A stretch of DNA of 64,000 nt, taken from a virus (taxonomy: Duplodnaviria; Caudoviricetes). Positions 15,903-31,818 of the stretch are shown piece by piece. The first letter of the stretch is position 1; each line of letters starts with the position of its first letter. Both the position numbers and the translations under genes were made by a program. The notes beneath the pieces were generated by a model. That model searched no databases. It was not told where the DNA came from and saw only the letters and a program-made list of their open reading frames with translations. Location of the stretch: positions 4,870 through 68,869 of IMG/VR virus record IMGVR_UViG_3300024581_002364; one strand, 5' to 3'.

Positions 15903-16169
15903 ATGCTGCCGGACCTTAATCCAATTGAAAAGCAAGAACGAGCCGTAGCATTACTTGCTATTGCTGATGAAGCTGAGAACAAAATTAAAAAAGGTGATGA
16001 TCCTTTAGAGGTTCAAACTTTTATTGGCGGCGCTCGCCGTGAATTGGCTCGCAAACTTCCCGATGTAAAAAGGATGGGCGAAGCAAGTTTGGCCGCAAAA
16101 CGTTATAAGGAAGAAGCACAAAAACAAGGTGGTGGATTTGGTGAATTCGTACAACCTAACCTTGCGTGA
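15903..16169 (+). CDS. Hypothetical protein
   Basis: 88 aa, followed by an intrinsic terminator. Confidence 0.6.
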   Translation: MLPDLNPIEKQERAVALLAIADEAENKIKKGDDPLEVQTFIGGARRELARKLPDVKRMGEASLAAKRYKEEAQKQGGGFGEFVQPNLA

Positions 16170-16192
16170 TTTGGGTTAAAAATTTGGGGTAA

Positions 16193-16216
16193 GTCCGGAT
16201 TTTCCGGACATTTTTT
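16193..16216 (+). terminator. Rho-independent terminator
   Basis: GTCCGGA-TTT-TCCGGAC then A and a T-run. Confidence 0.75.
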
Positions 16217-16607
16217 ATGTTATAAATTTTTTTAGACTTTGTAATATCGAATTTTTAAATTTGGGCTACCAGGGGTGGTGTAATACAAATTTTTTGCATC
16301 TCCGAAGTCGGCCCTAAGAACCTCAAATTGGGTTAAAAATTACCTGACACGTCTCACACACGTGTTCCGACTGGGAATGTGTATAGAAAAAAAATAAATG
16401 TCGGTTATTGCCGGTAGAAAGTAAGAATAGTTCTCATCATTAAGTTTTAAGGAGGAACTTCGTTTGAATTTACTAACAATTTTTGTTAAATTCAACAGAA
16501 AGTGTGTTAATCTTTATTATTTTTTAACAAATTAGCTGTCGTTTCCCGCGCAAATTACCATAAGATCCCTCCGCTCTCTTCTTTCAGATAATACTGTTAG
16601 AAGTAAT

Positions 16608-16634
16608 AGACCTAAGTAAGTCTTTAAACTGCTT
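16608..16634 (+). ncRNA. Leader H-type pseudoknot, family P copy 1
   Basis: AGAC-CUAAGUAA-GUCU-UUAAAC-UGCUU; loop AAGUA pairs with UGCUU. Confidence 0.65.
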
Positions 16635-17115
16635 TTGTTCTTTTTATTTTATCAAATCAAATGAACACAATTGCTTTCGTCACTGACAATTTCTACTTCG
16701 AGTTTGTTATCAACTCGGAGGAAGATATTGCGTACGTTACCAAGCGTGCGTTTCAAACTTCTGATGTTGACTTCAATGATCAGTGCACGTCGATGTCAAT
16801 CGAACGTGCCCGTAAGTATTACGCATCATTGATTGATTGATTGATCCGTCAAAGCGGGTCCGGAGGTGCAAACCCTCCGGCAGTTATTACCCCCAGCGGA
16901 GATGGGTACCGCACACTCGGAGCGACTGACGTGTTCTTCGTCATCCTCAACGGTCAACAACACAGCGCACACTTCTCCAAAGAGGAAGCCGACTTGGTTG
17001 CGTTTGATCTCTCGGTCGAACATAACTACAACTTCGGTCATCCTTTAGAAGAGTCCGCAGAGATATCTGTCTTCTCCTTTACGGAGATGATGGAGTCTCC
17101 GGTTGAGATGGTCCT

Positions 17116-17178
17116 TTGAGACCAGGCGTGATGCCGGGGGTCAAACCCCCTCTCAATTATTGCCACAATCCAGTGGCA
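17116..17178 (+). ncRNA. tRNA-elbow-like element plus UGCCAC/GUGGCA hairpin, copy 1
   Basis: UUGAGA/UCUCAA stem enclosing a GGC/GCC hairpin and GGGG-GUCAAAC-CCCC; then UGCCAC-AAUCCA-GUGGCA. Confidence 0.45.
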
Positions 17179-17585
17179 TTTATTTCATTTCATCATGTTT
17201 AAGAAACTTCTTGCTGATCCACGCTGTGTCTTTATTGGTGTAATGGGTTTAGCTTTAGGAACAATAGCTGTTGGAGTTACCACTCCTGCATTTATTGAAG
17301 GGGCAACCAGGAAACAGTGCCTTAACCGTGACTGGCCTGCTGAAAAGCATCTAGCTCACATGGCATTCTGTGAATACCATAAGTACCCCACTTCCTTAAA
17401 CCATTCCACCCTTTCCAACTGAACGATGACAGCACTCAACATCCGCAAGAACCTTGCCGGTCTTCTCTATCTCACTGCAGATACTATCGTCAAGGCCAAA
17501 GCACCCAAGGTGCCAACCAAAGGCCAGGTGAAGTATCAAGTTGATGATCTTCGTCGGAAGATTGCCAACAAGATCAATCCTGACA

Positions 17586-17648
17586 ACTGACAGCTGGTGC
17601 ATAGCCGGGTTCAATTCCCGGCGTCAGTCTTGCCACAATACCGTGGCA
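17586..17648 (+). ncRNA. tRNA-elbow-like element plus UGCCAC/GUGGCA hairpin, copy 2
   Basis: ACUGAC/GUCAGU stem, D-loop-like AGCUGGU, T-arm GCCGGG-UUCAAUU-CCCGGC; then UGCCAC-AAUACC-GUGGCA. Confidence 0.55.
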
Positions 17649-17906
17649 TTTATTGCATTACACCTCATGGCTACCAACAAAGAGAAGTCGATTGCCCTTG
17701 GTGCAGCATGTACTGCATTGGGTGCCATCATCTTTCCACCAACTGCTATTTTAGGTGCAATTTTAATTGCAAGGGAGGCACTATCAGACCACCCTTACGA
17801 ACAAGATGATAAGAAATCTAGTTCTTATCACAAACCCTTGGAGTACCAACCACCTGACATCAGCAACCCTAGGTTCTGAGTCTTCAGACAAGATACCAGA
17901 CACTTC

Positions 17907-18019
17907 TGTCTGGCTATGTCTGGCTATGTCTGGCTATGTCTGGCTATGTCTGGTTATGTCTGGCTATGTCTGGCTATGTCTGGCTATGTCTGGCTATGTC
18001 TAGTAACTTGTCTGGCTAT
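17907..18019. repeat. 10-bp tandem repeat (TGGCTATGTC)x9 plus degenerate flanks
   Basis: Nine units at 17911-18000, one variant TGGTTATGTC. Confidence 0.97.
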
Positions 18020-18049
18020 TACTCTTTACAAGTTCATTAGCCCAGGTAC

Positions 18050-18076
18050 CGTCCTGAGTATGACGTTAAACTGCTT
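18050..18076 (+). ncRNA. Leader H-type pseudoknot, family P copy 2
   Basis: CGUC-CUGAGUAU-GACG-UUAAAC-UGCUU; GAGUA pairs with UGCUU. Confidence 0.65.
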
Positions 18077-18531
18077 AATGTTTCCTTTAGATTCCCGACA
18101 TGCCAACCACTGTTGAGATTCAAACCGATGCCATTGCTAAAGCCCGTGACAAGAACTGGATGGTTCTAAGTGCAGGCACTGACTACACAGCAATTGTCAT
18201 CGCACACTGCCGTGACATGAACACCAACTGGTACAGAGAGATGGTGATTGTTGATGGTGTAGCTGAAACCATGACACATCAAAGTCCAGATACAGTCTGG
18301 AACGATGAAGAGATTGCCAAGAAGCTTGAGTGTTTCAAGCTGAATACCCATGGCAATGATTTCGTTACACCTGAGACTGACTGACCCCCCACCCCGTTTC
18401 CGTCAATGTCACTGCAGAGCTACAGGATCGGTAAGAACCAGTATGTGACCACTGACTTCTATAAAAGTCCAGGGTTGCGTAATCGGTTCTATCGTTTCAT
18501 TGCAAGGTTATTCCGTATTTAACCTTTCAAC

Positions 18532-18559
18532 AGACCTGAGTAAGTCTTTAAACTACTCA
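18532..18559 (+). ncRNA. Leader H-type pseudoknot, family P copy 3
   Basis: AGAC-CUGAGUAA-GUCU-UUUAAAC-UACUC; GAGUA pairs with UACUC. Confidence 0.65.
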
Positions 18560-18873
18560 CTGTTTTTTCATTTTATTAAATCACATGACTGTTCAAACAT
18601 TTGACGATGGTGGTTATGTTGTCACTGGTGACAGCATTCCCACGTATCGTCTCTTGACATTACGCACAGCTCTCAAACTGGAAACCAAGGGATTGCGTAT
18701 GTCATCTCATCGCCCTAGTGCATATTCAATCATTAAGAAAGAGTTTGGTCTAAAAGGTTCCAAGACTAAGGTCTTGGCTGCTTTTGAATCAATGCTTGTC
18801 AATGATTACGGCATACCTTTGACAGGCTTTACACCCTCTGAGCCTACGGTATAACTACCTTGTCCCCATCACA

Positions 18874-18905
18874 AGCTGGGCAGCAACAATGCGTAAGTCC
18901 CAGCT
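18874..18905 (+). ncRNA. Leader hairpin with GUAAG internal loop, family H copy 1
   Basis: AGCUGGG-CAGCA-ACAA-UGCGUAAGU-CCCAGCU. Confidence 0.65.
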
Positions 18906-19167
18906 TTCTTCACCTCATTTCATTTAGTACAACATCATGTCTACCATGTCTGAACTCCATCGCCTAATGCAAGAAATGAAGCAGGATGATCTTGACATCC
19001 TCGCTGATATTGCCTACGAACAAGAACAAGCCATGCGCGAAGCCATGGACGAACCACCAATCGAGGTATCAAATGACTCATCAACAAAGTAATCACACTG
19101 AAGTAATTACAGAGATCATTGCTTTGATCTCTGTTGTTATTACAGTTCTCATTACCAACATCATCCA

Positions 19168-19539
19168 ATGTCTTCAACCCTCAAGTACTACACCGAGCGT
19201 TATCCGGTTACAGGCGCAGCAAGATATTGGATTGACCGATACAACTGGTCCAAAACCTTTGATGGTTGTGACCCAGAAACAATCCAAATCCACAACATCT
19301 GGCAAAACTACGGCGGGCCAGAAGAAGGTGGTTGGTGGTACGAAGTCGGTCAAGCAATCTCCACGCATTTCATCTTCTCCAAGAAGCAATGTATCCGAAG
19401 ATGCATTGAACTCACCCAGCAGTACCAGCTTGATAACCAGCCTTCCATTACAGATTCACGAGGTCTCACCGCCGTTCATGCCACACTCGGAACAGGATTT
19501 GCCATGGACTATCCCACCGAGCGGCCTTACTATTGCTAG
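19168..19539 (+). CDS. Phage hypothetical protein with YGGPEEGGWWY motif
   Basis: Motif seen in the translation; I recognise it from other phage early regions. Confidence 0.65.
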   Translation: MSSTLKYYTERYPVTGAARYWIDRYNWSKTFDGCDPETIQIHNIWQNYGGPEEGGWWYEVGQAISTHFIFSKKQCIRRCIELTQQYQLDNQPSITDSRGLTAVHATLGTGFAMDYPTERPYYC

Positions 19540-19554
19540 GTCATGAACTACATA

Positions 19555-19586
19555 CCCTGGGCAGCTATGATGCGTAAGTCCCAGGG
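19555..19586 (+). ncRNA. Leader hairpin, family H copy 2
   Basis: CCCUGGG-CAGC-UAUGAU-GCGUAAGU-CCCAGGG. Confidence 0.65.
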
Positions 19587-20136
19587 TTTTCCATAGCAAG
19601 TCCTTCGTTATTCAACTACGTATCAAATCAAATCATGGACACAGTCAATGACATCTACGGTCCTTACTACCAAGAGAAGGGCCGAGAAATACCACGCAAG
19701 TCTTCACTCTCACCTGAAGCAGCAAAGCTGTGGCGTCAGATGGAACAAGCAGCTCATGCTTATGTCTATCAAGACGCACCATTGTGTGACCTTGATCAAG
19801 CAGTTGACGAGCTGATAGCCCACCCAGGCTGCAGCTGGCAACGCAACACAATTGAATACTGGATCCGCCAGCATTACTACAAATAACCACACTGATTTAT
19901 TAGTAAAACTTATTACTCAACCCATGTCTAATCTTCAAATTCCTGACAACATCCCTGATGCTGACAAGCTTAGGGCCATGGCACTCGTTGCAAAAATGCA
20001 GGATGCAGCTAACAAATGCGGTGCTCAATTCATCGGTGGATTCATTGCACCAGATGGCACCAAATACATTGCATCCAACATGGATGAAGATGATCCGAAC
20101 TACATCATCCCTGACAACCTTATGGATTGATCAACC

Positions 20137-20427
20137 ATGACTCGAAAGAAATCAAAGGTCAACTTTGACAAAACTATTGCCGGATTCAATATCACTGAAC
20201 ACGGCATCAAAAGCTACAGCAAAACTATCAAGCTTGGTCCTTTCCAGTTCACTGCCAACATCAATGGTTCACAGGCCAGGGGATCCTTAGGGATCCCTGG
20301 TACTGGCATATCATTTCGCAACTGCGTCTCTATGGACTTACCCTCTTTAGAGTCACCAGATCTGCCAGAATACAACCGCAAACCAGACATGTGGGATGAC
20401 GACGAAGGTTCTCAAGCTAAGCATTGA
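20137..20427 (+). CDS. DUF4236-like protein
   Basis: KTIKLGPFQFTANINGSQARGSLGIPGTGISFR. Confidence 0.6.
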   Translation: MTRKKSKVNFDKTIAGFNITEHGIKSYSKTIKLGPFQFTANINGSQARGSLGIPGTGISFRNCVSMDLPSLESPDLPEYNRKPDMWDDDEGSQAKH

Positions 20428-20590
20428 TAGTGTCACACCAGACGATGTAATTTATACAGGACCACGGGGTGGTGAATACATCATCCGCGATGGTATCAAG
20501 TATTACATCAACCGTAAGCCAACAAGCTATGGTCGTAATTACAAACCAAGGGCAGGTGCATTCCAACGATTCCTTGCTAATCAAAATTAA
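20396..20590 (+). CDS. PBCV basic-adaptor-like small protein
   Basis: IYTGPRGGEYIIRDGIKYYI motif. Confidence 0.6.
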   Translation: MTTKVLKLSIDSVTPDDVIYTGPRGGEYIIRDGIKYYINRKPTSYGRNYKPRAGAFQRFLANQN

Positions 20591-20661
20591 GTAACCCCTC
20601 CACACCTCCCAAAGGGCGACCAGGGGGAATACATTTATATATAGATGTACTTCTCTCTATC

Positions 20662-20688
20662 CGTCCTAGACATGACGTTAAACTGTCT
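20662..20688 (+). ncRNA. Leader H-type pseudoknot, family P copy 4
   Basis: CGUC-CUAGACAU-GACG-UUAAAC-UGUCU; AGACA pairs with UGUCU (compensatory changes). Confidence 0.65.
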
Positions 20689-21174
20689 TTGTTCACATCA
20701 CATCTAATCAAATGAAACTTGAATCCTGGCCTGACATCTACTCTAAGTACACCACAATTAGTGGCTTAGCTGATGAAGCCCAACAATCCATGGACAACTA
20801 CGAAGTTGGTTCCGAAGGATGGTACAAAGCATGGGGCCGAGCCGAAGGCTTGAGAACAGCCGCTATCGAAATCTTAAACAAATCTAATGACTGAAATCAT
20901 TTCTGTTGACTCAATTGAACTCGATCTTGTCGATGAACATGGAACAAGTTATTGGATCTGTTCTGCCACAATTGCTGACGCAGTTCAAACAATTGCTGCT
21001 CGGTATAATCCTCCTGGCAGTTCCCATCCTGCTGAATATGGTCCAGCGTCTTGCAGCTCATCATTTGAGCTAGAAGATGGTGAGTTACCACCTCCAGTAG
21101 ATGGAACACAGTACGAGCAGATTCAATATCTAACTGACCTTGATCTCGACTGGACTCCAGATCAAGACTAAACT

Positions 21175-21219
21175 CTAGGCATCAGTCGCTATTATCTCTG
21201 CAGGCTGTGTAAGTCCTAG
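21175..21219 (+). ncRNA. Leader hairpin, family H copy 3
   Basis: CUAGG-CAU-CAGUC...GGCUG-UGUAAGU-CCUAG (compensatory G-C to A-U change in the outer stem). Confidence 0.65.
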
Positions 21220-21241
21220 CTTTCTCTCACATCACATCACA

Positions 21242-23083
21242 ATGCATTTCCAACTTCCTGAACAACTGCAGATGGAGGTCATCAAGTATGACGCCACTCG
21301 CAAACAACTTGCTGCACAACAAAAGAAGGAAACTACTCGCAAGAAGAATCCTTATCCTGTTGGCAACGTCATTTCATTGGAGCTAATTCCGAGTGACGTT
21401 GTATCTGTTGTCGATATGCAAGCAGGTATTGATTTCATCAATCAACACTGTGCTGAGCAGCAATCAGTTCGATTTACCAGGCCCGATACTGAGTCGGGCA
21501 CAAACAAGATTAAAGCAATCTTGTATTACACCAAACACTTCTGGGTAGCTGCATGGTTACCACGCAGCACAGATGAGGGTTATTGGTATGGTATCTCTGT
21601 TGCATTCAAAGATAATGCAACTGCACGTAAACAATTTACTGGTAGTTTATTTCACTGTTCCAAAGTAGGTAAACGTGCTTTAATTAATGATATTACTGAT
21701 ATGCGTTCACAACGTATTGGACGTACTGATTGGTGTGTTACCACTAAATACATAACTCAAGAATATATTGATCAAGGTTATTCACGTCGTTACTATCACA
21801 ACGTTGATAATAACCATGATATTAAAGCATATCACGACAGGACTAGACAACATTATCGTCATGTTGAAGAGTTTGATCGTGAATTGTTAAGTCGTATCCC
21901 TTGTTGGACTGATACTCGTTATACATCTAATGCATGGGCACGCACCATGCCTAACGGTGATGATATTAAGTTTTGTTTATTGCAATCCAGATTATGGACT
22001 GTAGTTGATCATGATAAAACTTTTAATCATAATGTTGATACTTATATTGCTAAATTTAAATCTCTTGCTAAGAATAAATACATTCAAGAAGATTTCTGGG
22101 AATGTAAATGGTTCCGCAAGTTGGTATCCAAGATGGTAATTGATATGTCTACTGCATTTGATGCAAGAGACTCTATCAAAGCCAGCATTAAACCTATTGT
22201 CCAACCTTATGCAGTTGTTGATGCTTTCTTAGAGTCAGCAAGTGAAATCTATAAGCTTTATCCAGATCTAAATAAAGACTTGCTGATTACGCGTTTTGAC
22301 ATCTTAGTCGAAACACATTTTAGAGCATCTATTAGACATACTCCTGATAACAATCGTGCTCTTCTTTGGTTACAAACACATTTATCTGTTGAGTCATTCT
22401 TGAATATGCTTGGTAAATACCATGCTGAACAATTAGCTGAACATTCTGATTCTATTGATACTCATCGTCATTACTATCAGGATGATTGGACTGGTCGTTG
22501 GAGTTTCTTCTGGAGATTGTTTGATGATACATTTTCCATGCTGAATCAAGTTCTTGCTTGCAATGCGGGCATGACTGAATCAGGTGTGGAGTATCGCAAC
22601 AAGGAAGCATTGCCCAAGCTTGATCCAATGCCACGTCGTTGGCGTATGGATGAATGGCATGATCATCTCATGGCAGAAACTTGGAAGATTCGTAATCCAA
22701 ACGAAAAGCTTCCACAGAAGTTGTTCCCTGAACCAATCAAAGTTCTTCATAAGGGAATGCATGAAGGTTTCGATACTGAAACCAAATACACTTTCTTCCA
22801 GCCCATGGATACCCATCAGTTATCACAGTGGGGTCAAGCAGTACGTAATTGTGTTGGCTCTTCTAACTACTCAGAAGGTATTCGTAAGTACAGGCACATG
22901 ATTGTGCTTGTCATGATTGATGGCAAACCTCGTTACACTGTGCAACTTAAAGTTGACAATGGCATGATGGTTGTTAGTCAAATTGCTGACATCAGCAATG
23001 CACGACTTGATGATCTTGAACGTTCCAATGTTCAAGATGCATTTAAACAAGCCTTGCAGTTACGCGAAAAGCAGTTAAGCTAA
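21242..23083 (+). CDS. PcfJ-domain protein
   Basis: C-terminal WHDHL...QLSQWGQAVRNCVGSSNY...RYTVQL...VSQI pattern. Confidence 0.75.
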   Translation: MHFQLPEQLQMEVIKYDATRKQLAAQQKKETTRKKNPYPVGNVISLELIPSDVVSVVDMQAGIDFINQHCAEQQSVRFTRPDTESGTNKIKAILYYTKHFWVAAWLPRSTDEGYWYGISVAFKDNATARKQFTGSLFHCSKVGKRALINDITDMRSQRIGRTDWCVTTKYITQEYIDQGYSRRYYHNVDNNHDIKAYHDRTRQHYRHVEEFDRELLSRIPCWTDTRYTSNAWARTMPNGDDIKFCLLQSRLWTVVDHDKTFNHNVDTYIAKFKSLAKNKYIQEDFWECKWFRKLVSKMVIDMSTAFDARDSIKASIKPIVQPYAVVDAFLESASEIYKLYPDLNKDLLITRFDILVETHFRASIRHTPDNNRALLWLQTHLSVESFLNMLGKYHAEQLAEHSDSIDTHRHYYQDDWTGRWSFFWRLFDDTFSMLNQVLACNAGMTESGVEYRNKEALPKLDPMPRRWRMDEWHDHLMAETWKIRNPNEKLPQKLFPEPIKVLHKGMHEGFDTETKYTFFQPMDTHQLSQWGQAVRNCVGSSNYSEGIRKYRHMIVLVMIDGKPRYTVQLKVDNGMMVVSQIADISNARLDDLERSNVQDAFKQALQLREKQLS

Positions 23084-23096
23084 GGCGGGATTGGGC

Positions 23097-23125
23097 TTTA
23101 CCCCTCCCTGCTTGTGGCGTATAGT
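23097..23125 (+). promoter_or_regulatory. Sigma70-type promoter upstream of tRNA
   Basis: TTTACC-17 nt-TATAGT. Confidence 0.55.
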
Positions 23126-23133
23126 GGCGCATT

Positions 23134-23166
23134 AGATCAGATGGTGCAACATCTGATCTTTTTTTT
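23134..23166 (+). terminator. Terminator-like hairpin abutting the tRNA 5' end
   Basis: AGATCAGATG-GTGCAA-CATCTGATCT then T7. Confidence 0.7.
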
Positions 23167-23255
23167 GGGAGCGTGATGGAATTGGTAGACATTGCAGACT
23201 TAAAATCTGTTGATCAGTAATGATCGTGCGGGTTCAAGTCCCGCCGCTCCTACCA
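23167..23255 (+). tRNA. trnL: tRNA-Leu (anticodon UAA), CCA encoded
   Basis: Acceptor GGGAGCG/CGCTCCT, D-loop TGGTAG, anticodon arm GCAGA-CTTAAAA-TCTGT, long variable arm, T-arm GCGGG-TTCAAGT-CCCGC, 3' ACCA. Confidence 0.97.
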
Positions 23256-23276
23256 AACTTAACTACACCTAATCAA

Positions 23277-23630
23277 ATGTTTCAAGCACTTAAATCTCTC
23301 ATCCCGCAGCCTCACTGCAACATGGATGAAGACCAGCGTTACAACATTGGCTTAACCTGGATTGATCGTGACGGTCTTACCGATCGGCACAATGTCCAGA
23401 TCAAATACATCCGTAATAGTGAACGACTAGCTGTCACGATGGGTGAGCCTCAGCCAGACGGCAGCTGGAGATACATTGATGAAGGCGGAATGGTTCACAC
23501 CATGAATGCTGAACGAGTCAATGCTTTTTACAAAAAGACTCAAGAGAATGCTGTGATCATGTCAGCAATGATTGACAAGATCAATGAGCATGTCGGACCT
23601 ACGGTTGACACTAAGGGTTCGCCTGCTTAA
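23277..23630 (+). CDS. Hypothetical protein (start moved downstream of the tRNA)
   Basis: MFQALKSL... start; the track's longer version overlaps the tRNA. Confidence 0.65.
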   Translation: MFQALKSLIPQPHCNMDEDQRYNIGLTWIDRDGLTDRHNVQIKYIRNSERLAVTMGEPQPDGSWRYIDEGGMVHTMNAERVNAFYKKTQENAVIMSAMIDKINEHVGPTVDTKGSPA

Positions 23631-23633
23631 TAT
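23605..23633 (+). promoter_or_regulatory. Sigma70-type promoter
   Basis: TTGACA-17 nt-TAATAT. Confidence 0.55.
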
Positions 23634-23650
23634 CAGCGCGGACGAGACCT

Positions 23651-23680
23651 AGCCCTGGATTCAGAGCCCAGGGCTTTTTT
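23651..23680 (+). terminator. Rho-independent terminator-like hairpin
   Basis: AGCCCTGG-9 nt-CCAGGGCT then a T-run. Confidence 0.7.
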
Positions 23681-23694
23681 ATTTTTCAAACAAC

Positions 23695-23979
23695 ATGCCT
23701 GAATCATTTCGCAAAAAGAAGAACACTTTTGCTATTGGTGATCGTGTCATTCGTAAAGCAGGACCTTTTGGTGGACCGCCAAATGCAAAGCGAATCCTTC
23801 ATGGTGAAGTTGTAGACATTACTTACAAAGTAAATGCAAGAGGTGCCAAGCATCCTTACATTACAGTCAAGTTCGATCATAGCCAAAGGCTAGAAACCTT
23901 TATGGCTTCTCGCATCGAACATGAAGCCAACAAAGAAAAGCACCTTGCTGATGCCATCGAATCTGTCTATGTCCCCTGA
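23695..23979 (+). CDS. Small beta-barrel (KOW/SH3-like) hypothetical protein
   Basis: FAIGDRVIRK...GEVVDI...YITVKFD pattern. Confidence 0.5.
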   Translation: MPESFRKKKNTFAIGDRVIRKAGPFGGPPNAKRILHGEVVDITYKVNARGAKHPYITVKFDHSQRLETFMASRIEHEANKEKHLADAIESVYVP

Positions 23980-24628
23980 AGTTAAATTAACTTGGGCAAC
24001 ACAAGATGCCGAGTCACTCATTGTTGAGATGGCTCGTGTATCTGCTCCTAAAAATGCAAAGAACATGAGCACTGCACCACGTCTCATCAAGTATTTAATT
24101 AAACACAAACATTGGTCACCATTTGAAATGGCAAATATGTGTGTAGAGATACACACTACAAGAGCAATTAGCCCTCAAATATTGAGGCATAAATCTTTTT
24201 CATTCCAAGAATTTAGCCAACGATATGCTAATACCAATGAAATAGGACGTATTGAAATACCTCATCTTAGGGTTCAAGATACTAAGAACAGACAAAACTC
24301 CACTGATACTCTTGAAACTCTTTTGGGTAAGCCAGCAACTGCTGATTTATACCGTCGTGTTTCTATGCATTTTGAAGATGCAGAGCATTTGTACCAAGAA
24401 CTTCTTAGCTCCGGCGTGGCAAAAGAATCAGCCAGATTTATATTGCCTACCGCCGCACCTACAAAAATGTTTATGAACGGTACACTTCGTTCATGGTTGC
24501 ATTATCTTGACTTAAGAACCGATGTCTCAACACAACTTGAACACAGAGAGATTGCATTAACTATTAAAGATATTTTTAAAAAACAATTCCCTGTTATTTC
24601 AGAGGCTGCTTGGAATGAACTGTCGTAA
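23969..24628 (+). CDS. thyX: FAD-dependent thymidylate synthase
   Basis: HKHWSPFEM and signature RHKSFSFQEFSQR; likely start MSPEVKL. Confidence 0.95.
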   Translation: MSPEVKLTWATQDAESLIVEMARVSAPKNAKNMSTAPRLIKYLIKHKHWSPFEMANMCVEIHTTRAISPQILRHKSFSFQEFSQRYANTNEIGRIEIPHLRVQDTKNRQNSTDTLETLLGKPATADLYRRVSMHFEDAEHLYQELLSSGVAKESARFILPTAAPTKMFMNGTLRSWLHYLDLRTDVSTQLEHREIALTIKDIFKKQFPVISEAAWNELS

Positions 24629-24950
24629 ATGCAATTCTAAAAATACTAAAGTTACAGTTACTGAACATAAGAAAGAAGTAACTTGGCGGTACTGTAAATG
24701 TTTAGATTGTAATACTAAGTTTAAAACTATTGAGCGATATGAATATCAAAAACGTACACCATTAAATCTGGTGCCTATACCAAAGGGTTGTGCTAATTAC
24801 AATTCACGTTTTACACCGGAAGATATTTATGACATCCGTAAACGATATGAGAAAGGTGATAGTGCTGCACAAATAGCTCTTAAATATAGTTGCGGACGGT
24901 CTACAATCCAAAGGATTGCGACCTACAAAACTTACAAAGATGTTATTTGA
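24615..24950 (+). CDS. Zn-ribbon (NrdR/Ogr-like) plus HTH protein
   Basis: CRKC...RYCKCLDCNTKFKTIE, then FTPEDIYDIR...SAAQIALKYSCGRSTIQRI. Confidence 0.65.
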   Translation: MNCRKCNSKNTKVTVTEHKKEVTWRYCKCLDCNTKFKTIERYEYQKRTPLNLVPIPKGCANYNSRFTPEDIYDIRKRYEKGDSAAQIALKYSCGRSTIQRIATYKTYKDVI

Positions 24951-25118
24951 AGATGCACTAGATCTTATCTACCGAGGACAAACAAATGTTGCAGTCATGG
25001 CTAACAAAACAGGCGTCTCATTGGAAGAAATGAAACGCCTGTTTAATTTATATGTAAGTCAACGTCCTATTGATCCAGATGTTTGGAGAGCAGACGTTGA
25101 ACTTGGTTGGCCTTGGGT

Positions 25119-25277
25119 TTAAACAATGCTATCTGGATTATTTTTCATGCGTAAACGGTCAAGTTTTGCTTCAAATTCCCGGCGTTGTTCTTGCAAACGT
25201 TGGTTCAAAAGATATGCAGCCATGGGATCAGGACGCTCGTACTTGACTCCACGATACGTCAACACTGTTTGTGCCAT
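25119..25277 (-). CDS. DUF4278 small protein, GifB/IF17-like (52 aa, not in ORF track)
   Basis: MAQTVLTYRGVKYERPDPMAAYLLNQRLQEQRREFEAKLDRLRMKNNPDSIV; LTYRGVxY is the DUF4278 hallmark; riboswitch directly upstream. Confidence 0.8.
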   Translation of the reverse strand: MAQTVLTYRGVKYERPDPMAAYLLNQRLQEQRREFEAKLDRLRMKNNPDSIV

Positions 25278-25294
25278 GATGTTCTCCGCTTTAA

Positions 25295-25351
25295 CTCTGG
25301 TTCCCGTTCCGTAACCAGATGAGATGCGCCAGCACTATAGCTGGTGAACGT
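25295..25351 (-). ncRNA. Glutamine-II riboswitch (Downstream-peptide motif)
   Basis: CGUUC/GAACG P1, CCAGC/GCUGG hairpin, CGCA junction, GGAACGGG, pseudoknot UCUGGUU/AACCAGA; TATAAT at 25364-25359; DUF4278 gene downstream. Confidence 0.85.
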
Positions 25352-25380
25352 ACTTATTATTATAGTTCAGCTAAACAACC

Positions 25381-25779
25381 ATGCCCGGTACTCGCAGACA
25401 ACCACGCACAAACCTCTATTCCACACAGCAAGTGTTGCAGTCCACAATGATGGCTCGTTACACTCTTATGCGTTATGTTAAAGACGGTAGGTTTCCTAAA
25501 CCAGCAATTAAAGCTGGTGACATTGACTCTCGTGGTGCTGATTGGTATTCCAAAAAAGATGTTGATAAATGGTTAAAAGATAACTCTGATTTAATTTTAT
25601 GGAAACGAAAACGCATTGAAGAAGATATTACTTTAACAATTTCAGCAGATGATTTGAAAAAAATACGAAAAGCATCTGAAGTATTAATGTGTGACATTGA
25701 ACCATTTATTATTGAAGCTGCAATCTGGAAAGCAAAACTTATTCTTAAACAAACAGAGATGAATACTAATTACTATTAA
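25381..25779 (+). CDS. AlpA/excisionase-like HTH protein with a possible C-terminal RHH
   Basis: LYSTQQV...RYTLMRYVKDGRFPKP...WYSKKDVDKWL. Confidence 0.65.
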   Translation: MPGTRRQPRTNLYSTQQVLQSTMMARYTLMRYVKDGRFPKPAIKAGDIDSRGADWYSKKDVDKWLKDNSDLILWKRKRIEEDITLTISADDLKKIRKASEVLMCDIEPFIIEAAIWKAKLILKQTEMNTNYY

Positions 25780-25782
25780 CAA

Positions 25783-25822
25783 CTGGGCAGCAGGTTTATC
25801 GGGATGCCTGCGTAAGTCCCAG
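25783..25822 (+). ncRNA. Leader hairpin, family H copy 4
   Basis: CUGGG-CAGCAGG...CCUGCGUAAGU-CCCAG. Confidence 0.65.
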
Positions 25823-25844
25823 ACACACTAAATTAAATCACACT

Positions 25845-26615
25845 ATGCACACTTTAAAATTTTCCACAGGCAATGCCAAGCTTGGAAAACGTCTCATCTT
25901 TTCCTTACCAGCAGGTTACACCTGTCCTAACGCTGGTCATTGCAAAACATTTGCTGATCGTGTTACAGGTAAAATCAAAGACCTGCCGCAGTCGGCTCAC
26001 GCAACTGGACTTGAGTATCGCTGCTTTGCTGCCATGGCAGAGGCGCGTAGTAAAAACTGCCGTGATGCGCGGTGGTTTAATTGGGACACACTCAAAGAAA
26101 TCCTTTATTCTGAAGATACAAAAGATCCAGTAAGTGCAATTGCCGATACAATTTCTTACGGAATCTGGCAATACAATAAGCACAAATTAGTTTATGATCT
26201 CTGTCGTATCCATGAATCTGGAGACTTTTGGTCTGAGCTTTATTTCCAGGCTTGGCTAAAAGTTGCACGACAACATCCCAACATCAAATTCTATGCTTAC
26301 ACCAAGCAACTCTCCTACTGGCTCAATGCTAAAGACGACATTCCTGCTAACTTGTTTCTCACTGCTTCAGTTGGCGGTAATCTCGATCATTTACTCGCCA
26401 GGTACAGCCACATTTTCAGGCGTATAGCCCATGTGGTTTATACAGAAAATCAAGCTATTGATATGGGTTTAGACATTGATCATGACGATAGCCATTGTTT
26501 TGGTAATAAACCGTTTGCACTTCTAGTTCATAACGTCCAAAGGGCAGGAACTGCTGCATCAAAAGCATTGGCTGAGCGTAAACGTCAGGGATCTTGGACA
26601 GGATATTCTAAATAA
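25845..26615 (+). CDS. Gp88-like protein
   Basis: GNAKL...FSLPAGYTCP...CFA...RIHESGDF...FYAYTK. Confidence 0.7.
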   Translation: MHTLKFSTGNAKLGKRLIFSLPAGYTCPNAGHCKTFADRVTGKIKDLPQSAHATGLEYRCFAAMAEARSKNCRDARWFNWDTLKEILYSEDTKDPVSAIADTISYGIWQYNKHKLVYDLCRIHESGDFWSELYFQAWLKVARQHPNIKFYAYTKQLSYWLNAKDDIPANLFLTASVGGNLDHLLARYSHIFRRIAHVVYTENQAIDMGLDIDHDDSHCFGNKPFALLVHNVQRAGTAASKALAERKRQGSWTGYSK

Positions 26616-26619
26616 TTAG

Positions 26620-26668
26620 TTGCAAGCTTACGAGGAATGAGTACTATTTATTCGTTCCTCATTTTTAT
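26620..26668 (+). promoter_or_regulatory. Promoter of the polymerase operon, overlapped by an inverted repeat
   Basis: TTGCAA-16 nt-TACTAT; GAGGAATGA/TCGTTCCTC arms flank the -10 box. Confidence 0.45.
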
Positions 26669-26842
26669 TTGTGTCGTACTTAATTACTACTTATATAGAT
26701 GGTGTGCCGCATGCCATCATGCCTAATGTTGATGCAATGAGATTTGATCTGATTCGTGTCACAAAAGATTCTGAAATTTCCAAAGCATTCTGCAGTCCGA
26801 ACAAAACTGGTGCTATGAATGTTCTTAAGTGGATTAATGAGA

Positions 26843-28705
26843 ATGATGAAACTCTCTCAAGTAAAGGACTGTCAGTTTCCCCTGAAGCCAAGTTCTTCCG
26901 CTGATAAGTGGTACGTCTTTGATTTAGAAACTAACGGACTTTATGATGATGTTACACAAATCTTTTGCATCGTCTTACACGATGTCTACAGAAACCAGAC
27001 TCTTAGTTATGGGCCTGGGTCTATTGATGACGCTCTTAGTCTTATCGCTGATGCTGATTGTCTCATCGGCCATAACATAATTTTTTACGACTTGCCTGTT
27101 CTTCGTAAACTTTATCCCAATCTCCTGGTCAAAGATCAACATGTCATCGACACCCTCGTCGCAACCAGGCTCATATGGCCGAAAGAAAAACTATTTGACC
27201 TTGATGAAAATCACTACACGTCAGTGCCACCTGGTCTTAGAGGATCAGCCGGTCTTAAAGCTTGGGGCTATCGACTCAGTGATTACAAAATTGATTTCAA
27301 AGACTTTTCTGTCTACTCACAGGAGATGCTTGACTACTGCATCCAAGACGTTAATGTCACCACCAAACTCTATAAAGAAATCTGTCAATACTCCATTGCA
27401 GCATCAGCGCATAAGTTGGAGCATGATTGTGCCCTTGCGATTGAGAAACAGATTAGATCAGGTTTTCCATTTGATGTTGATCAATGTCTTGATCTTGTGG
27501 ATGGGCTTGAATCTAAGAAACAGAATCTAGAGACACAGCTCAAAAAATTATTTCCACCAATCGAGACAGAAGAGTGGTTTACTCCTAAAGTAAACAACAC
27601 CAAACGTGGTTACGTCAAAGGTGTGCCCTTTCGTAAAGTTCACATTGAAGAATTTAACCCAGGCTCTCGCGCACAAATCACTGCACGTCTCAAAGATAAA
27701 TACGGTTGGACACCTGAACGGACTACCGAAAAAGGTAATCCAATCTTGGATGACGACGTACTGGAACAACTGCCGTATCCAGAAGCTAAACCGCTTGCTG
27801 AATACATGCTGCTTAAAAAACGACTTGGTCAAATTAAAGACGGTAAAAATGCATGGCTCAAACTGGTCTCAAAAGATGGCTACATGCACGGTGATCTTGT
27901 TACCAATGGCTGTATTACCGGTCGAGCAAGTCACCGTAATCCCAACATGGCGCAAATTCCTGCTGCCTATTCACCCTACGGCAAAGAATGCCGTTCTTTA
28001 TTCCATGCTCCTGACGATTGGGTTCTTATTGGGGCAGATGCCAAAGCTTTGGAATTACGATGCTTGGCTGGATATTTGGCTATATGGGATGATGGTGAAT
28101 ACGGAAATGTTGTTATTGATGATGCTCAAGACATTCATTCATACAATCAAGAAATGTTTGGAGTTGCCACAAGAGATATTAGTAAGCGTCTTCTCTATGC
28201 TGTTCTTTATGGGTGTGGTTTCCTTAAAGCAGGTAACATTGTGGATCCACAAGAAAAAGATCCTGATCGACTCAAACAACTGGGGAGATCTGCCATCTCT
28301 TCCTTCATGTCCAAAGTCCCAGCCGTACAATCTCTCAAAGAACTTCTTGAAAAAAATCTAACCAACCGTGGTTATTTACTTGGTCTTGATCGTAGACCTT
28401 TGTATTGCAGATCTGAATTCAAAGCATTGAATGTGCTTTTGCAATCAGCAGGTGCAATCATCATGAAACAAGTTGTTGTCAATGTACATAATGCATTGAA
28501 AGAAGCTGGTTTCATCTATGGTCAGGACTGGCATCAACATGCATTTATACATGATGAAATACAAATATCTTGTCGTCCAGGTTTGGAAACGGATCTCACT
28601 CCTCTTATTCTTTCTGCTTTTGTGGATGCCGGTAATTTCTATAGTTTTCGTTGCAAAATAGAAGGTGACGCTAAGACCGGCTATACATGGTATTCAACAC
28701 ACTGA
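26843..28705 (+). CDS. polA: Family A DNA polymerase (T7-like, 3'-5' exo plus polymerase; Tyr at the E. coli 762-equivalent position)
   Basis: Exo I FDLETNG, Exo II GHNIIFYD, motif A GADAKALELR, motif B SKRLLYAVLYG, motif C IHDEIQ. Confidence 0.96.
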   Translation: MMKLSQVKDCQFPLKPSSSADKWYVFDLETNGLYDDVTQIFCIVLHDVYRNQTLSYGPGSIDDALSLIADADCLIGHNIIFYDLPVLRKLYPNLLVKDQHVIDTLVATRLIWPKEKLFDLDENHYTSVPPGLRGSAGLKAWGYRLSDYKIDFKDFSVYSQEMLDYCIQDVNVTTKLYKEICQYSIAASAHKLEHDCALAIEKQIRSGFPFDVDQCLDLVDGLESKKQNLETQLKKLFPPIETEEWFTPKVNNTKRGYVKGVPFRKVHIEEFNPGSRAQITARLKDKYGWTPERTTEKGNPILDDDVLEQLPYPEAKPLAEYMLLKKRLGQIKDGKNAWLKLVSKDGYMHGDLVTNGCITGRASHRNPNMAQIPAAYSPYGKECRSLFHAPDDWVLIGADAKALELRCLAGYLAIWDDGEYGNVVIDDAQDIHSYNQEMFGVATRDISKRLLYAVLYGCGFLKAGNIVDPQEKDPDRLKQLGRSAISSFMSKVPAVQSLKELLEKNLTNRGYLLGLDRRPLYCRSEFKALNVLLQSAGAIIMKQVVVNVHNALKEAGFIYGQDWHQHAFIHDEIQISCRPGLETDLTPLILSAFVDAGNFYSFRCKIEGDAKTGYTWYSTH

Positions 28706-28707
28706 TA

Positions 28708-28735
28708 CTGGGCATCCTTAAGGTGTAAGCCCCAG
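28708..28735 (+). ncRNA. Leader hairpin, family H copy 5
   Basis: CUGGG-CAUCC-UUAA-GGUGUAAGC-CCCAG. Confidence 0.6.
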
Positions 28736-28760
28736 ATAAAACCGTTTAAAGGATCGGATC

Positions 28761-29585
28761 ATGAACAAAGCTTTTCTGTCGCTGCAAGCAGCAGAAGCTC
28801 CACGTCAAGTCTATGTGGATGCAAATCGCACCAATGTGATTGTTAATGTCACAGCTCCACCTGCTGGTAAAGGCAAAGTTGCAACGCCTCTGACTCTGTT
28901 CATCTACACCAAAGCTGAACAAGATCGTGTCATGCAAACTATCAAAGAAGGTTCATATCTCTTTGTTGCAGGTGCTAAGTTGCGTCACGATTTAGAAAAG
29001 CGTGAACACTCACTTCATGGTGGATTAATTTATCCAGTTAACCCTGGTGAGTTTGGCATTATTAATGACATTATTCTTGGTGGTCGTTGCATTAAAGATG
29101 TAGATCGCAGTGATGAACGCGCTTATCGCGTTACTGAAGCTGGTTATGTTATTACAAACCAAACACTATCGGTAAACACTGGTAAGCAACAAGCTGACCT
29201 TTATAACTTCTATGCCATTAATGAAACCTCAGCCCGTTACAACCTGGCTGAATTGGTATCAACAATGACTAAAAAAGGAACAGGTCTAACCATCTCTGGT
29301 CGTTTAGTTACTGATGGCTGGACTGATAAAGCCTCTGGTGAACAGCGGTTTTCAACCAAGATTCAGCTGAACAACATGACCTTGGCTCCCAAAGCACAAG
29401 CTGGAGAGATCAAGCCATCAACTGAAATTGCACCTGGTGGTACTGCTGCTTCTCTATGGGGTAACGCAGATAGTCCTGCATCTAAACCACAACCTGTAGC
29501 GGCTGCTGCTTCTCCTGCACCAGATGTATGGGCTGATGGTTTACCTGATCTGCCTTCATCTAATGATGACAACGATCCTTTTTAA
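28761..29585 (+). CDS. ssb: Single-stranded DNA-binding protein with two OB-like domains
   Basis: KKGTGLTISGRLVTDGWTDKASGEQRFSTKI; Pro/Ala linker; acidic tail DDNDPF. Confidence 0.75.
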   Translation: MNKAFLSLQAAEAPRQVYVDANRTNVIVNVTAPPAGKGKVATPLTLFIYTKAEQDRVMQTIKEGSYLFVAGAKLRHDLEKREHSLHGGLIYPVNPGEFGIINDIILGGRCIKDVDRSDERAYRVTEAGYVITNQTLSVNTGKQQADLYNFYAINETSARYNLAELVSTMTKKGTGLTISGRLVTDGWTDKASGEQRFSTKIQLNNMTLAPKAQAGEIKPSTEIAPGGTAASLWGNADSPASKPQPVAAAASPAPDVWADGLPDLPSSNDDNDPF

Positions 29586-29605
29586 GCTAAACTAGTCGCA
29601 CTTAT

Positions 29606-29635
29606 CTGGGCATCTGCATGCAGTGTAAGGCCCAG
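29606..29635 (+). ncRNA. Leader hairpin, family H copy 6
   Basis: CUGGG-CAUCUGC-AU-GCAGUGUAAGG-CCCAG. Confidence 0.65.
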
Positions 29636-29661
29636 AACTTAACCTCGAAACAACCCTGATT

Positions 29662-30672
29662 ATGACCCCGACTTCATCTGCTTTGGCTAAACGCAAACTT
29701 GATTCGTTTGCGATGTTCAATGACAAGAAATTTGTCAGTGGATATCAGCCGCTTGTTACTATCCAGCCTCTTAATAAATCTAAGAAGCGTGGTTGGTTTG
29801 TTCGTAATTCTGATCTTGACAATTGTGGGTGGACCGCAACTGAAAAAGATTTTGACAAAGGTGCAATCATCTTTGATTACGAGCATGCCTTTGGTATGGC
29901 TCCAAACATGACCAAAGAAACAGGTCTTAATTTCCAGCGACCACGCGTTCAGGTTCTGTTGCGTTCACCTCTAATGGTGGAAGAACAGTTTGGAATGCGT
30001 CAATGCATTGGTACCTTTGAAGATCCTGAAGTTAAGGAATTGTTTGAAGCTGATAAAACAGCTGCTGACTTAGCTGCTAGCAAAAATGAAATGTACAAAC
30101 GTAAGTATTCTGTCCGCACTAAATATTTGGTCTATATCTTGACCAATGCTAATAAGCGGGCTCATAAAATCCCAATGGTTCTTACCCTTAAGGGTTTGAA
30201 TGGTACAGATGTTTCTGAAAAGATTCGTTTGTATGAAAAGGAAATGTCCAAGTGTTTATCTAAAGCACTGGACTCTGAAGTTCCTTTGCAATTCAACGAA
30301 AAGTTCTATGCAACCACTGTCTTTTGCCCTGAGCTAAGCAGTGATATGCGTGGATCTAATAACGTTGAGATCTGTGCTATCGAATCATTCGACATCCCAG
30401 ATTACACAAGTCAAGAAACAGCTGTTGCTGCCCTTGATTCCATGTCCATTCCTGATGAAGATCGTGAATCAACCTGGAAATTCCAAGAGATGTACAACGA
30501 CTACATCAACCAACATGCCCGCCAAGATGCTAGTCGGCTCAATGGTGCGTATGGGAACGCGGAAGGTGTCAGTATTCTTCCGGAGTCAAGAACGACTGAT
30601 GCTACCGTTGAAGTCCTCCCCGCAGCTACCAAAGCTTCCAGGGATGACCTCGGAGCGGATTCAACCTTCTGA
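29662..30672 (+). CDS. DUF5895-like protein
   Basis: PRVQVLLRSPL...KYLVYILTNANKRAHKIPMVLTLKG...TVFCP, adjacent to ssb. Confidence 0.5.
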   Translation: MTPTSSALAKRKLDSFAMFNDKKFVSGYQPLVTIQPLNKSKKRGWFVRNSDLDNCGWTATEKDFDKGAIIFDYEHAFGMAPNMTKETGLNFQRPRVQVLLRSPLMVEEQFGMRQCIGTFEDPEVKELFEADKTAADLAASKNEMYKRKYSVRTKYLVYILTNANKRAHKIPMVLTLKGLNGTDVSEKIRLYEKEMSKCLSKALDSEVPLQFNEKFYATTVFCPELSSDMRGSNNVEICAIESFDIPDYTSQETAVAALDSMSIPDEDRESTWKFQEMYNDYINQHARQDASRLNGAYGNAEGVSILPESRTTDATVEVLPAATKASRDDLGADSTF

Positions 30673-30864
30673 TAAAAAGGCTTGATCCATTTGGTCTAGT
30701 GCATCTTTCACTAGACCTTTAATCACACACTGGCGGGTCGCAGCTATGTTGACAAGCAGGGTTGCGATCTGCTTTAATTCATCTACTGAACTACATTCCT
30801 CGATGTAACGAGTCATCTTGACCTTCCAGAACTCTTCTTCTGGTGATGGTTCAAAGTTCAGCAT
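30661..30864 (-). CDS. Divergent NblA-like helical hairpin protein
   Basis: EPSPEEEF...SVDELKQIATLL...TRQCVIKGLVK aligns loosely with the NblA pattern ELSLEQQF...DQAKDFLVKL...RE....ELLK. Confidence 0.45.
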   Translation of the reverse strand: MLNFEPSPEEEFWKVKMTRYIEECSSVDELKQIATLLVNIAATRQCVIKGLVKDALDQMDQAFLSEG

Positions 30865-30891
30865 TCTATTTAATTTTATTCATCATTCTAC

Positions 30892-31818
30892 ATGGAATCA
30901 CAACTTCAACAACTCAGCGAAGCTCAGTCTCTTATTTATTCCAGATCAAACATCAGACGTACCTATTCTGAGTTTGATGATACTGACATTGCTGGTACTT
31001 ACCTTGATAGCAATGATTGCTTGATCATTGTTAGAAACGATGGTTCTCAGCAGTCGTATCCAGCAAATACAGTTCGTAAAACATTTGCAGACTTTACAAC
31101 TAGGCTGCCTCATTTCTTTGCCTACCTTGGTCCTAACTTCAGAGGTCCCAGCATTTGGCGCAATAACTGCTACATCATGCATAAAGGTTGGCATTACCAG
31201 GCTCAAGGCACTGCTAACTTGGTCAATGCTCAAGCTCAACGTCGATGGGTAGACAAATACTCATTGCTTGATTCAGAAGAAAAAATTAAAGCTGCTCTTG
31301 GTAGTTTTGATCTGGGTTACCTCATCTCACCTGATGGTAAAACTGCTGGTTACAAAGCACCAACACTTGCTGACGATGAAGTAGAAGATGATGAGACACC
31401 ACAGCCCTACTGCAGTTGTGGTTCTTTCCAACGCCAATCCAATCTTGCTGATCAAATTCGTCAGGATATTCCTGACTTTCAACCATCCTGTAAACACATG
31501 ACCTGGTTTGCCAGGTATCGTCAGTTTCTTTCTGCACGTTCTGAACTTATTGAATCTTGCCGTGGTCACATGGCAGAAACAGCTACAGCCTGGTATTATG
31601 CACCCCCTGCTCTAGGTAAAGAGCATGGCAAACTCTCTATCATCTATACCAAGCATGGACAAAATGCCCCACTTAAAATGTGGCGGCACTACAAAGCCCA
31701 AGAATCATTCAACGAAACTGACGCTTGGGATCTCTTTGACAACATGTTAGAGAAAGGCTTCGTGCCTTTCCCTCACACCTCACTTATTCAAATCGCACAC
31801 GCATTCAAAGCTAACTAA
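30892..31818 (+). CDS. SWIM zinc-finger protein
   Basis: YCSCGSF...PSCKHM (CxC...CxH). Confidence 0.7.
   Translation: MESQLQQLSEAQSLIYSRSNIRRTYSEFDDTDIAGTYLDSNDCLIIVRNDGSQQSYPANTVRKTFADFTTRLPHFFAYLGPNFRGPSIWRNNCYIMHKGWHYQAQGTANLVNAQAQRRWVDKYSLLDSEEKIKAALGSFDLGYLISPDGKTAGYKAPTLADDEVEDDETPQPYCSCGSFQRQSNLADQIRQDIPDFQPSCKHMTWFARYRQFLSARSELIESCRGHMAETATAWYYAPPALGKEHGKLSIIYTKHGQNAPLKMWRHYKAQESFNETDAWDLFDNMLEKGFVPFPHTSLIQIAHAFKAN

Follow-up and report, generated by a model that had tools for sequence, protein, structure and literature searches.

A repeated intercistronic RNA hairpin with a near-invariant CA/GUAAG internal loop in S-EIV1-like cyanophages and unrelated phage lineages

The RNase III hairpins of phage T7 (R0.3, R1.1 and others) are intercistronic elements of an early polycistronic messenger RNA (mRNA) that carry an asymmetric loop and occur in several copies per genome, and these traits are shared by a hairpin found six times in a 64,000-nucleotide (nt) stretch of DNA (hereafter the window; bases 4870-68869 of a 68.9-kb IMG/VR virus record) from an uncultured S-EIV1-like cyanophage. 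The T7 hairpins reportedly stabilise the message after cleavage. They span about 50-60 nt, with a stacked helix of some 20 base pairs (bp), whereas the cyanophage hairpin, of the general form NNNGG-CA-(variable stem-loop)-GUAAG-N-CCNNN, goes down to 25-28 nt and 8 bp; it lacks the two coaxial helical turns required of a T7 site, its conserved loop is a different one and the phages that carry it are cyanophages. The motif is a new family of a broadly familiar kind, the repeated intercistronic structures in phage mRNAs. No description of it was found in the literature on S-EIV1, S-CBWM1 and cyanophage RNA motifs, and Rfam 15 placed no family over any of the six hairpins, either at gathering thresholds or in a permissive scan (E<=5) of positions 16000-31000.

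A likeness is also seen to the SAS/ESAS repeats of cluster K mycobacteriophages and the PeSL repeats of T4-type phages, which are short conserved repeats just upstream of many start codons, some of them reportedly accompanied by variably spaced inverted repeats. SAS, however, is a linear 13-nt sequence overlapping the ribosome-binding site and PeSL includes a sigma-70 promoter, whereas the hairpin has covarying stems and an internal loop, lacks a promoter and ends 20-34 nt ahead of the ATG. At the level of the loop, the kink-turn and the 11-nt GAAA-tetraloop receptor are comparable in being A-rich, asymmetric and flanked by G-C pairs, and by analogy with both it is likely that the loop of the hairpin kinks the helix or makes A-minor contacts. 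An actual kink-turn was rejected, as with CA on the short strand and GUAAG-N on the long strand no register provides the G·A/A·G pairs and keeps the covarying 5-bp outer stem. The AA-platform receptor to which a first-pass annotation of the window had likened the loop does not fit either: the 11-nt receptor needs CCUAAG against UAUGG, whereas here the CC lies 3' of UAAG and the partner is only CA.

The coremin motif (GUCCGAAGACGUUAAACUAC) of plant viruses stalls both Xrn1 and scanning ribosomes in protein-free form, and is laid out as a hairpin with a YGAD, YGNNAD or heptaloop (e.g. CGAGUAA), a spacer (GUUAAACUAC) and a second hairpin (PMC6546385; PMC10520033). Its core, GACGUUAAACU, is common to a phage pseudoknot that occupies the hairpin's junctions in sister phages at the same 20-30-nt distance from the ATG, and coremin (xrRNA_C), this pseudoknot and the hairpin are alike in being small intergenic RNA folds, presumably independent of protein in the phages as well. 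The pseudoknot pairs its loop with a 3' tail where coremin has a second hairpin instead, and the features of coremin are partly present in the sister pseudoknots beginning at 16608, 18050, 18532 and 20662. The hairpin itself has neither a first hairpin of 3-5 bp with a YGAD/YGNNAD loop, nor the 10-nt spacer, nor the second hairpin; it differs from coremin in consisting of one nested hairpin with a CA/GUAAG-N internal loop.

Comparative evidence for the fold

The six copies (Table 1) are all intergenic and all on the plus strand. Their 3' half, GTAAGNCCYAG, occurs six times in the window against 0.12 expected, a count reached in none of 100 shuffles, and each occurrence is preceded by a complementary 5-mer plus CA, with a self-complementary stretch in between. 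A stem-aware scan and a covariance model run without filters, each covering both strands of the whole window, returned the full architecture at these six places only; no divergent extra copy emerged in the window from either of them or from a two-mismatch search, and the whole virus record contains the same six. The first-pass annotation had thus placed the copies correctly, its starts at 18874 and 19555 reflecting 7-bp outer stems, and had rightly pointed to the compensatory CUAGG/CCUAG stem at 21175; the covariance model search that it proposed recovered its six copies and no others.

Fifteen IMG/VR relatives were obtained through their polymerase, the motif not being used for selection. These hold up to ten copies each, a few having none in the stretch fetched, and their outer stems read CUGGG/CCCAG, CUAGG/CCUAG, CUUGG/CCAAG, AUGGG/CCCAU, CCAGG/CCUGG and UUGGG/CCCAA. 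A pattern scan of IMG/VR added at least 100 further contigs, and since about half of single matches are at chance level for 17 specified bases, only matches with a paired interior were kept. The phage contigs examined contain about 130-150 distinct examples in total. Twenty-two copies of the 28-nt form served to build the covariance model, whose alignment comprises 117 matches, 91 of them distinct; being model-fitted and seeded with CUGGG, this alignment understates the diversity of the outer stem and is complemented by the regular-expression scans.

Pairing in the outer stem reaches 99.8% across the 91 distinct sequences, and compensatory changes are found at one outer pair, which alternates between G-C, A-U and U-A, and at all three modelled inner pairs, which alternate between C-G, U-A, A-U and G-C. 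Double-change cells number 72, compared with 17 ± 3 in shuffles (none of 500 reached 72), and the covariation signal collapses when the partners are slid by one to three columns. The stems contain 39 G·U pairs and 2 A·C mismatches, which argues that it is the sense strand that folds and not the DNA as a symmetric cruciform. On this comparative, rather than thermodynamic, evidence the hairpin fold is real.

The basal helix of 5-7 bp ends in two G-C pairs, beyond which CA lies opposite GUAAG-N, with U as the bulged N in 76% of copies. A pair is formed between the base that follows CA and the one that precedes GUAAG, as U·U (61%), G-C (15%), C-G (9%), A-U (7%) or G·U (6%). The 61% of copies with U...U could also adopt another register, in which CAUC pairs with GGUG and UAAGN is left as a 5-nt bulge, and for copy 5 RNAfold gives this as the minimum-free-energy structure; it fails for the G-C, C-G and A-U classes and is therefore not the general fold. 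The loop had been described as invariant. This holds for AAG and the C of CA, which, like the adjacent GG/CC pairs, show no variation in the relatives; about 10% of distinct copies, on the other hand, have G, U or C for the A of CA, and about 5% have A in place of the initial G of GUAAG. No covariation is seen between these two positions, whose variants are single and rare.

The apical stem-loop does vary freely, as the first-pass annotation stated, measuring 10-27 nt in the window copies and anything between 7 and about 45 nt in those of the relatives. Copies within one genome share no apical sequence, so that the hairpin is not a recently transposed repeat. The 37 distinct minimal copies have 28 nt and 5+3 bp (the shortest copies of all have 25 nt), and 12 of them are capped by GNRA or UNCG tetraloops, compared with about 5% by chance, which suggests that the apical part is merely a stable cap. 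The proposal that the conserved loop is a site of protein or tertiary contact is supported for a contact or tertiary site of some kind; a T-loop-like (U-G-U-A-A) or GNRA-like turn is conceivable.

Placement before start codons and exchange with a pseudoknot

Spacing was counted for 126 distinct copies away from contig ends, relative to open reading frames (ORFs) of at least 45 codons that start with ATG on the same strand. Seventy-nine of these copies end 20-34 nt before such a start, with modes at 22, 26 and 29-31 nt, a spacing that random positions show in 4.4% of cases and opposite-strand controls in 8 of 133. Seventy begin 0-12 nt after a stop codon; the distance to the downstream start is nevertheless kept in 25 of the 33 copies that lie more than 30 nt from the upstream stop, and the downstream start is therefore the constrained partner. 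The leader between hairpin and start is G-poor (5-15% G) over about 32 nt and has no Shine-Dalgarno sequence.

Signals of transcription are lacking in the immediate surroundings. No -35/-10 boxes are conserved upstream (information at most 0.3 bit per position from -45 to -1), a weak match lying near only one of the six window copies, and there is no U-tract on the 3' side in 149 contexts (T 18-53% at +1 to +10), where position +3 is never G, +3/+4 are U-rich and no conserved cleavage motif was found in the flanks. Canonical T-tract terminators are present in the same gene block (Table 1), and the scan that finds them has none of the six hairpins among its matches. The genes that follow terminators or promoters, ThyX (23921) and the polymerase gene pol (26819), carry no hairpin, and the hairpins must therefore be internal to read-through polycistronic RNAs.

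At four further junctions of the same operon the place of the hairpin is taken by the pseudoknot, both stems of which covary and which ends 23-29 nt before the ATG. Over ten orthologous junctions in 17 genomes, hairpin and pseudoknot (GAC-G-UUAAAC-U) alternate at equal spacing from the start codon. Between pol and ssb the hairpin is found in the window and in contigs L007, L008, L010 and L011, and the pseudoknot in S-EIV1, L012, L013, L015, L017 and L019; before the GP88-like gene the hairpin is found in the window, L007, L009, L010 and L011, and the pseudoknot in L012, L013, L015, L016, L017 and L019. The junction before the PcfJ-like gene carries the hairpin in the window and L007 and the pseudoknot in S-EIV1, L016 and L017, and at the junction before ORF 18100 the roles are reversed, with the hairpin in L008 and the pseudoknot in the window. 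At most of the window's hairpin junctions, S-EIV1 has the pseudoknot class.

A two-stem hairpin with a conserved asymmetric internal loop does lie upstream of each of the genes named in the first-pass annotation, which took these genes for a co-regulated set. That interpretation is not upheld: the junctions of the PcfJ-like, GP88-like and ssb genes carry the pseudoknot in relatives, at the same distance from the ATG, and in other lineages the hairpin precedes quite different genes, e.g. that of the major capsid protein. Because of this exchange and of the different genes found downstream elsewhere, the hairpin is better regarded as a generic intercistronic module than as the tag of a regulon.

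Two lineages beyond the S-EIV1-like phages have the hairpin. In S-CBWM1-like contigs it precedes the major capsid gene by 47 nt; the capsid protein shows 67% identity to its S-CBWM1 counterpart, and the leader of this gene does contain GGAG. In GC-rich temperate-phage contigs, which encode a serine integrase and a terminase, the hairpin follows the stop codon of a phrog_4652 gene at a distance of 4 nt. In six of the contigs (L024, L038, L062, L063, L084 and L130) the sequence immediately 3' of the hairpin consists of some 100 nt of G-rich repeats, with a period of about 11 nt (GGCAAGGxCGG-like), in which no ORF is obvious; these may be iterons or another non-coding feature. The isolate S-CBWM1 has no copy of the motif, and the isolate S-EIV1 only two near-copies (CG...GUAAG and CA...AUAAG) along with many pseudoknots. 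No protein common to the three lineages was detected in the fetched loci, and the phrog_4652 protein is absent from the window and the S-EIV1-like loci; the unrelated lineages probably share hosts.

Exact-pattern scans of 185,579 cellular species genomes with the two commonest variants gave 0 and 4 matches, where about 4.6 are expected by chance, and one of these matches evidently stems from a phage contig that ended up in the bin of an archaeal metagenome-assembled genome (MAG). Three short contigs (L147, L148 and L151) in Aliivibrio, Bacteroidetes and Woesearchaeota MAGs, with S-EIV1-like phage genes or the hairpin, are probably phage contigs that were mis-binned.

Table 1. Hairpins, pseudoknots and other structured elements of the window. 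Bit scores of the hairpin copies are from the covariance model.
Feature	Position	Strand	Form and score	Context
Hairpin copy 1	18874-18905 (core 18876-18903)	+	outer stem to 7 bp; 41.7 bits	20 nt past stop of ORF 18585-18854; next ATGs 33 nt (18937) and 82 nt (18986) downstream
Hairpin copy 2	19555-19586 (core 19557-19584)	+	7-bp outer stem; 38.5 bits	9 nt past stop of ORF 18986-19546; 50 nt before ATG 19635
Hairpin copy 3	21175-21219	+	compensatory CUAGG/CCUAG outer stem, long apical part; 29.3 bits	3 nt past stop 21171; 22 nt before ATG of PcfJ-like gene (21242)
Hairpin copy 4	25783-25822	+	31.5 bits	3 nt past stop 25779; 22 nt before ATG of GP88-family gene (25845)
Hairpin copy 5	28708-28735	+	minimal 28-nt form; 46.9 bits	2 nt past DNA polymerase stop (28705); 25 nt before ssb ATG (28761)
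Hairpin copy 6	29606-29635	+	31.3 bits	20 nt past ssb stop (29585); 26 nt before ATG of DUF5895-like gene (29662)
Pseudoknot	16608-16634	+	coremin-like, H-type; AGAC-CUAAGUA-AGUCU-UUAAAC-UGCUU	about 26 nt before ATG 16661
Pseudoknot	18050-18076	+	CGUC-CUGAGUAU-GACG-UUAAAC-UGCUU	23 nt before ATG 18100
Pseudoknot	18532-18559	+		about 25 nt before ATG 18585
Pseudoknot	20662-20688	+	stem 2 AGACA/UGUCU	23 nt before ATG 20712
Terminator	23134-23166	+	10-bp stem + T8	between PcfJ-like gene and next block
tRNA-Leu(UAA)	23167-23255	+		immediately after the terminator
Terminator	26632-26670		T-tract	same gene block
Structured element	16841-16901	+	GAUCCGUCAAAGCGGGUCCGG...CCGG...CCCCAGCGGAG	earliest part of operon; also in S-EIV1 record, 43420-43495 and 43733-43842 (-)
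Hairpin pair	17161-17178 and 17631-17648	+	TGCCACAAT(C/A)C(A/C)GTGGCA, then TTTATT
tRNA-like match	17593-17628		mascRNA model, 20.3 bits, E=4, not significant	ahead of the second hairpin of the pair
Hammerhead_HH9 match	25628-25698	+	22.6 bits (gathering score 52), E=0.1	inside ORF 25381-25779
Glutamine-II riboswitch (RF01704)	25295-25353	-	44.4 bits (gathering score 33)	upstream of 52-aa ORF (25119-25277, -)

Candidate functions

We infer, tentatively, that the hairpin is a self-contained, compact RNA fold that serves the downstream cistron as an intercistronic barrier or insulator, a reading that we find plausible although it falls somewhat short of probable. The hairpin would act in cis within the polycistronic early and replication mRNAs of cyanophages, its loop and flanking G-C pairs folding by themselves into a compact kinked module that would need no dedicated phage protein. 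Placed at the upstream edge of the next cistron's ribosome-binding region, this module would form a physical boundary, which would stop 5'-to-3' decay or 5'-end-dependent attack arriving from the upstream cistron (by RNase J or RNase E) and would keep the 20-34-nt, G-poor leader, devoid of a Shine-Dalgarno sequence, open for ribosome loading; a hairpin directly after a stop codon would in addition serve the upstream message as a 3'-end cap. Cyanobacteria have both RNase J and RNase E, and lack Rho. The spacing from the start codon, the exchange with a coremin-like fold, the occurrence in unrelated phages and the absence from the cellular genomes scanned together favour a self-contained module operating on general machinery, and disfavour a lineage-specific protein or the mimicry of a host site.

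Several observations weigh against this barrier reading. The near-invariant bases of the loop resemble a sequence-specific protein site, and the hairpin is unlike coremin and every known exoribonuclease-resistant RNA, so that the argument leans on its exchange of position with the pseudoknot, itself an element of only putative function in phages. Both elements are moreover present in one operon of this phage and are maybe not fully redundant. The stability predicted for the window copies is modest, at -7 to -15 kcal/mol and z-scores of -0.3 to -2.2, so that any blocking power must come from tertiary contacts beyond this prediction. Finally, the hairpin of the GC-rich lineage has no downstream start nearby, which fits a role at a 3' end better than one in a 5' leader.

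A near-invariant loop is also what would be predicted by an operator for a sequence-specific RNA-binding protein or by a nuclease processing site, and both remain serious rivals. A phage or host protein bound to the CA/GUAAG loop could coordinately repress, activate or stabilise the downstream cistrons, for which T4 RegA, Mu Com, lambda N-boxB and the coat-protein operators of RNA phages provide parallels. Conservation of the loop and its flanking G-C pairs while the stems covary is a classic signature of protein contact, several copies per genome stand ahead of early and replication genes, and from a fixed site close to, yet outside, the ribosome footprint a bound protein could modulate initiation. 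However, no RNA-binding or RNase domain, nor an RNA polymerase, was found among the approximately 60 window ORFs scanned with Pfam and PHROGs, and the binders suggested by the first-pass annotation (24615, 25381 and 57383) turned out to have only DNA-type helix-turn-helix or zinc-ribbon domains. The motif is present in at least three unrelated lineages without a detected common protein, its absence from the cellular genomes scanned would leave a host protein without matching host targets, and a structurally unrelated pseudoknot with which it exchanges is unlikely to be recognised by the same protein. An operator is consequently somewhat unlikely, and one confined to a particular set of genes is excluded by the data.

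Less likely still is an endonucleolytic processing site, at which cleavage by a host RNase, inside the loop or beside it, would yield monocistronic messages, as at the RNase III sites of T7. The hairpins do lie between cistrons of read-through transcripts and are absent ahead of the first genes after terminators or promoters, the same operon contains a real transfer RNA (tRNA) and weak tRNA-like folds, which hint at RNA punctuation, and the avoidance of G at +3 with U-rich +3/+4 would be in keeping with processing. RNase III, however, needs roughly two helical turns, and the minimal copies, at 5+3 bp and 25-28 nt, are far below this length; the flanks have no conserved cleavage motif, and the cellular genomes scanned are without the motif. 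This rival overlaps in part with the barrier reading, as cleavage nearby could be combined with protection by the fold.

The data rule out a promoter, a canonical terminator and a DNA-level palindrome. An unconventional signal of transcription, i.e. a terminator or attenuator without a U-tract, a pause site or a hairpin promoter for a phage RNA polymerase, is in turn very improbable: the frequent position right after stop codons, and at the end of a gene without a close downstream gene in the GC-rich lineage, would suit it, but the phage has canonical terminators at other places, the transcription of essential genes further downstream, ssb among them, would be cut short, promoter boxes and an RNA polymerase were not found, and the spacing is set from the start codon and not from the stop. 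We give the least credence, and very little, to a single-stranded DNA structure for replication or recombination (attC-, REP- or ssi-like) or a mobile mini-element, as an attC-like architecture (paired flanks, bases unpaired on one strand, a variable terminus, one orientation between genes) and G·T pairs, which single-stranded DNA would tolerate too, are offset by the lack of a GTT core (GTTRRRY-type) and of a tyrosine recombinase or HUH nuclease in the window ORFs scanned, by flanking genes that are essential and syntenic rather than cassettes, by a spacing tied to start codons and by exchange with an RNA-type pseudoknot.

Neighbouring elements and significance

The window encodes a family-A DNA polymerase, a PrimPol-D5 primase-helicase, SSB, ThyX, a dCTP deaminase and a terminase. 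The isolate closest to it is S-EIV1, a polar freshwater phage of Synechococcus whose polymerase shows 64.5% amino-acid identity, and a megablast search of the region against 50,697 phage records gave matches only at the tRNA and at a ThyX fragment. Besides the hairpin and the pseudoknot, the operon has a third conserved structured intergenic element and a pair of similar hairpins of another kind (Table 1). The glutamine-II riboswitch, which was recovered by a permissive scan and missed by the default gathering-mode scan, lies antisense within the plus-strand operon and supports a cyanobacterial host; the match to Hammerhead_HH9 is most likely due to chance.

Whatever its mechanism, the hairpin is an undescribed RNA motif backed by covariation and merits a family entry, and if a blocking function were shown its mechanism could also be new. 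It is possible, although we consider it rather unlikely, that cyanophages employ it next to the coremin-like pseudoknots as a second and structurally novel class of blocking RNA that needs no protein, a 25-30-nt stop for RNase J/RNase E decay or for ribosomes at the borders of cistrons. If this were true, no exoribonuclease-resistant or insulator RNA family would have been defined before it in bacteria or their viruses. Should the barrier reading hold, nuclease-resistant viral RNAs would be extended from eukaryotic RNA viruses to DNA phages, and the polycistronic messages of these phages, which are without Shine-Dalgarno sequences, would be organised by tiny interchangeable RNA modules, each located one ribosome footprint upstream of an independently translated gene. 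Such modules would provide a portable 25-30-nt insulator or stabiliser part for cyanobacterial synthetic biology, as well as a testable handle on how mRNA decay and translation starts are set in cyanobacteria, both of which are poorly understood.

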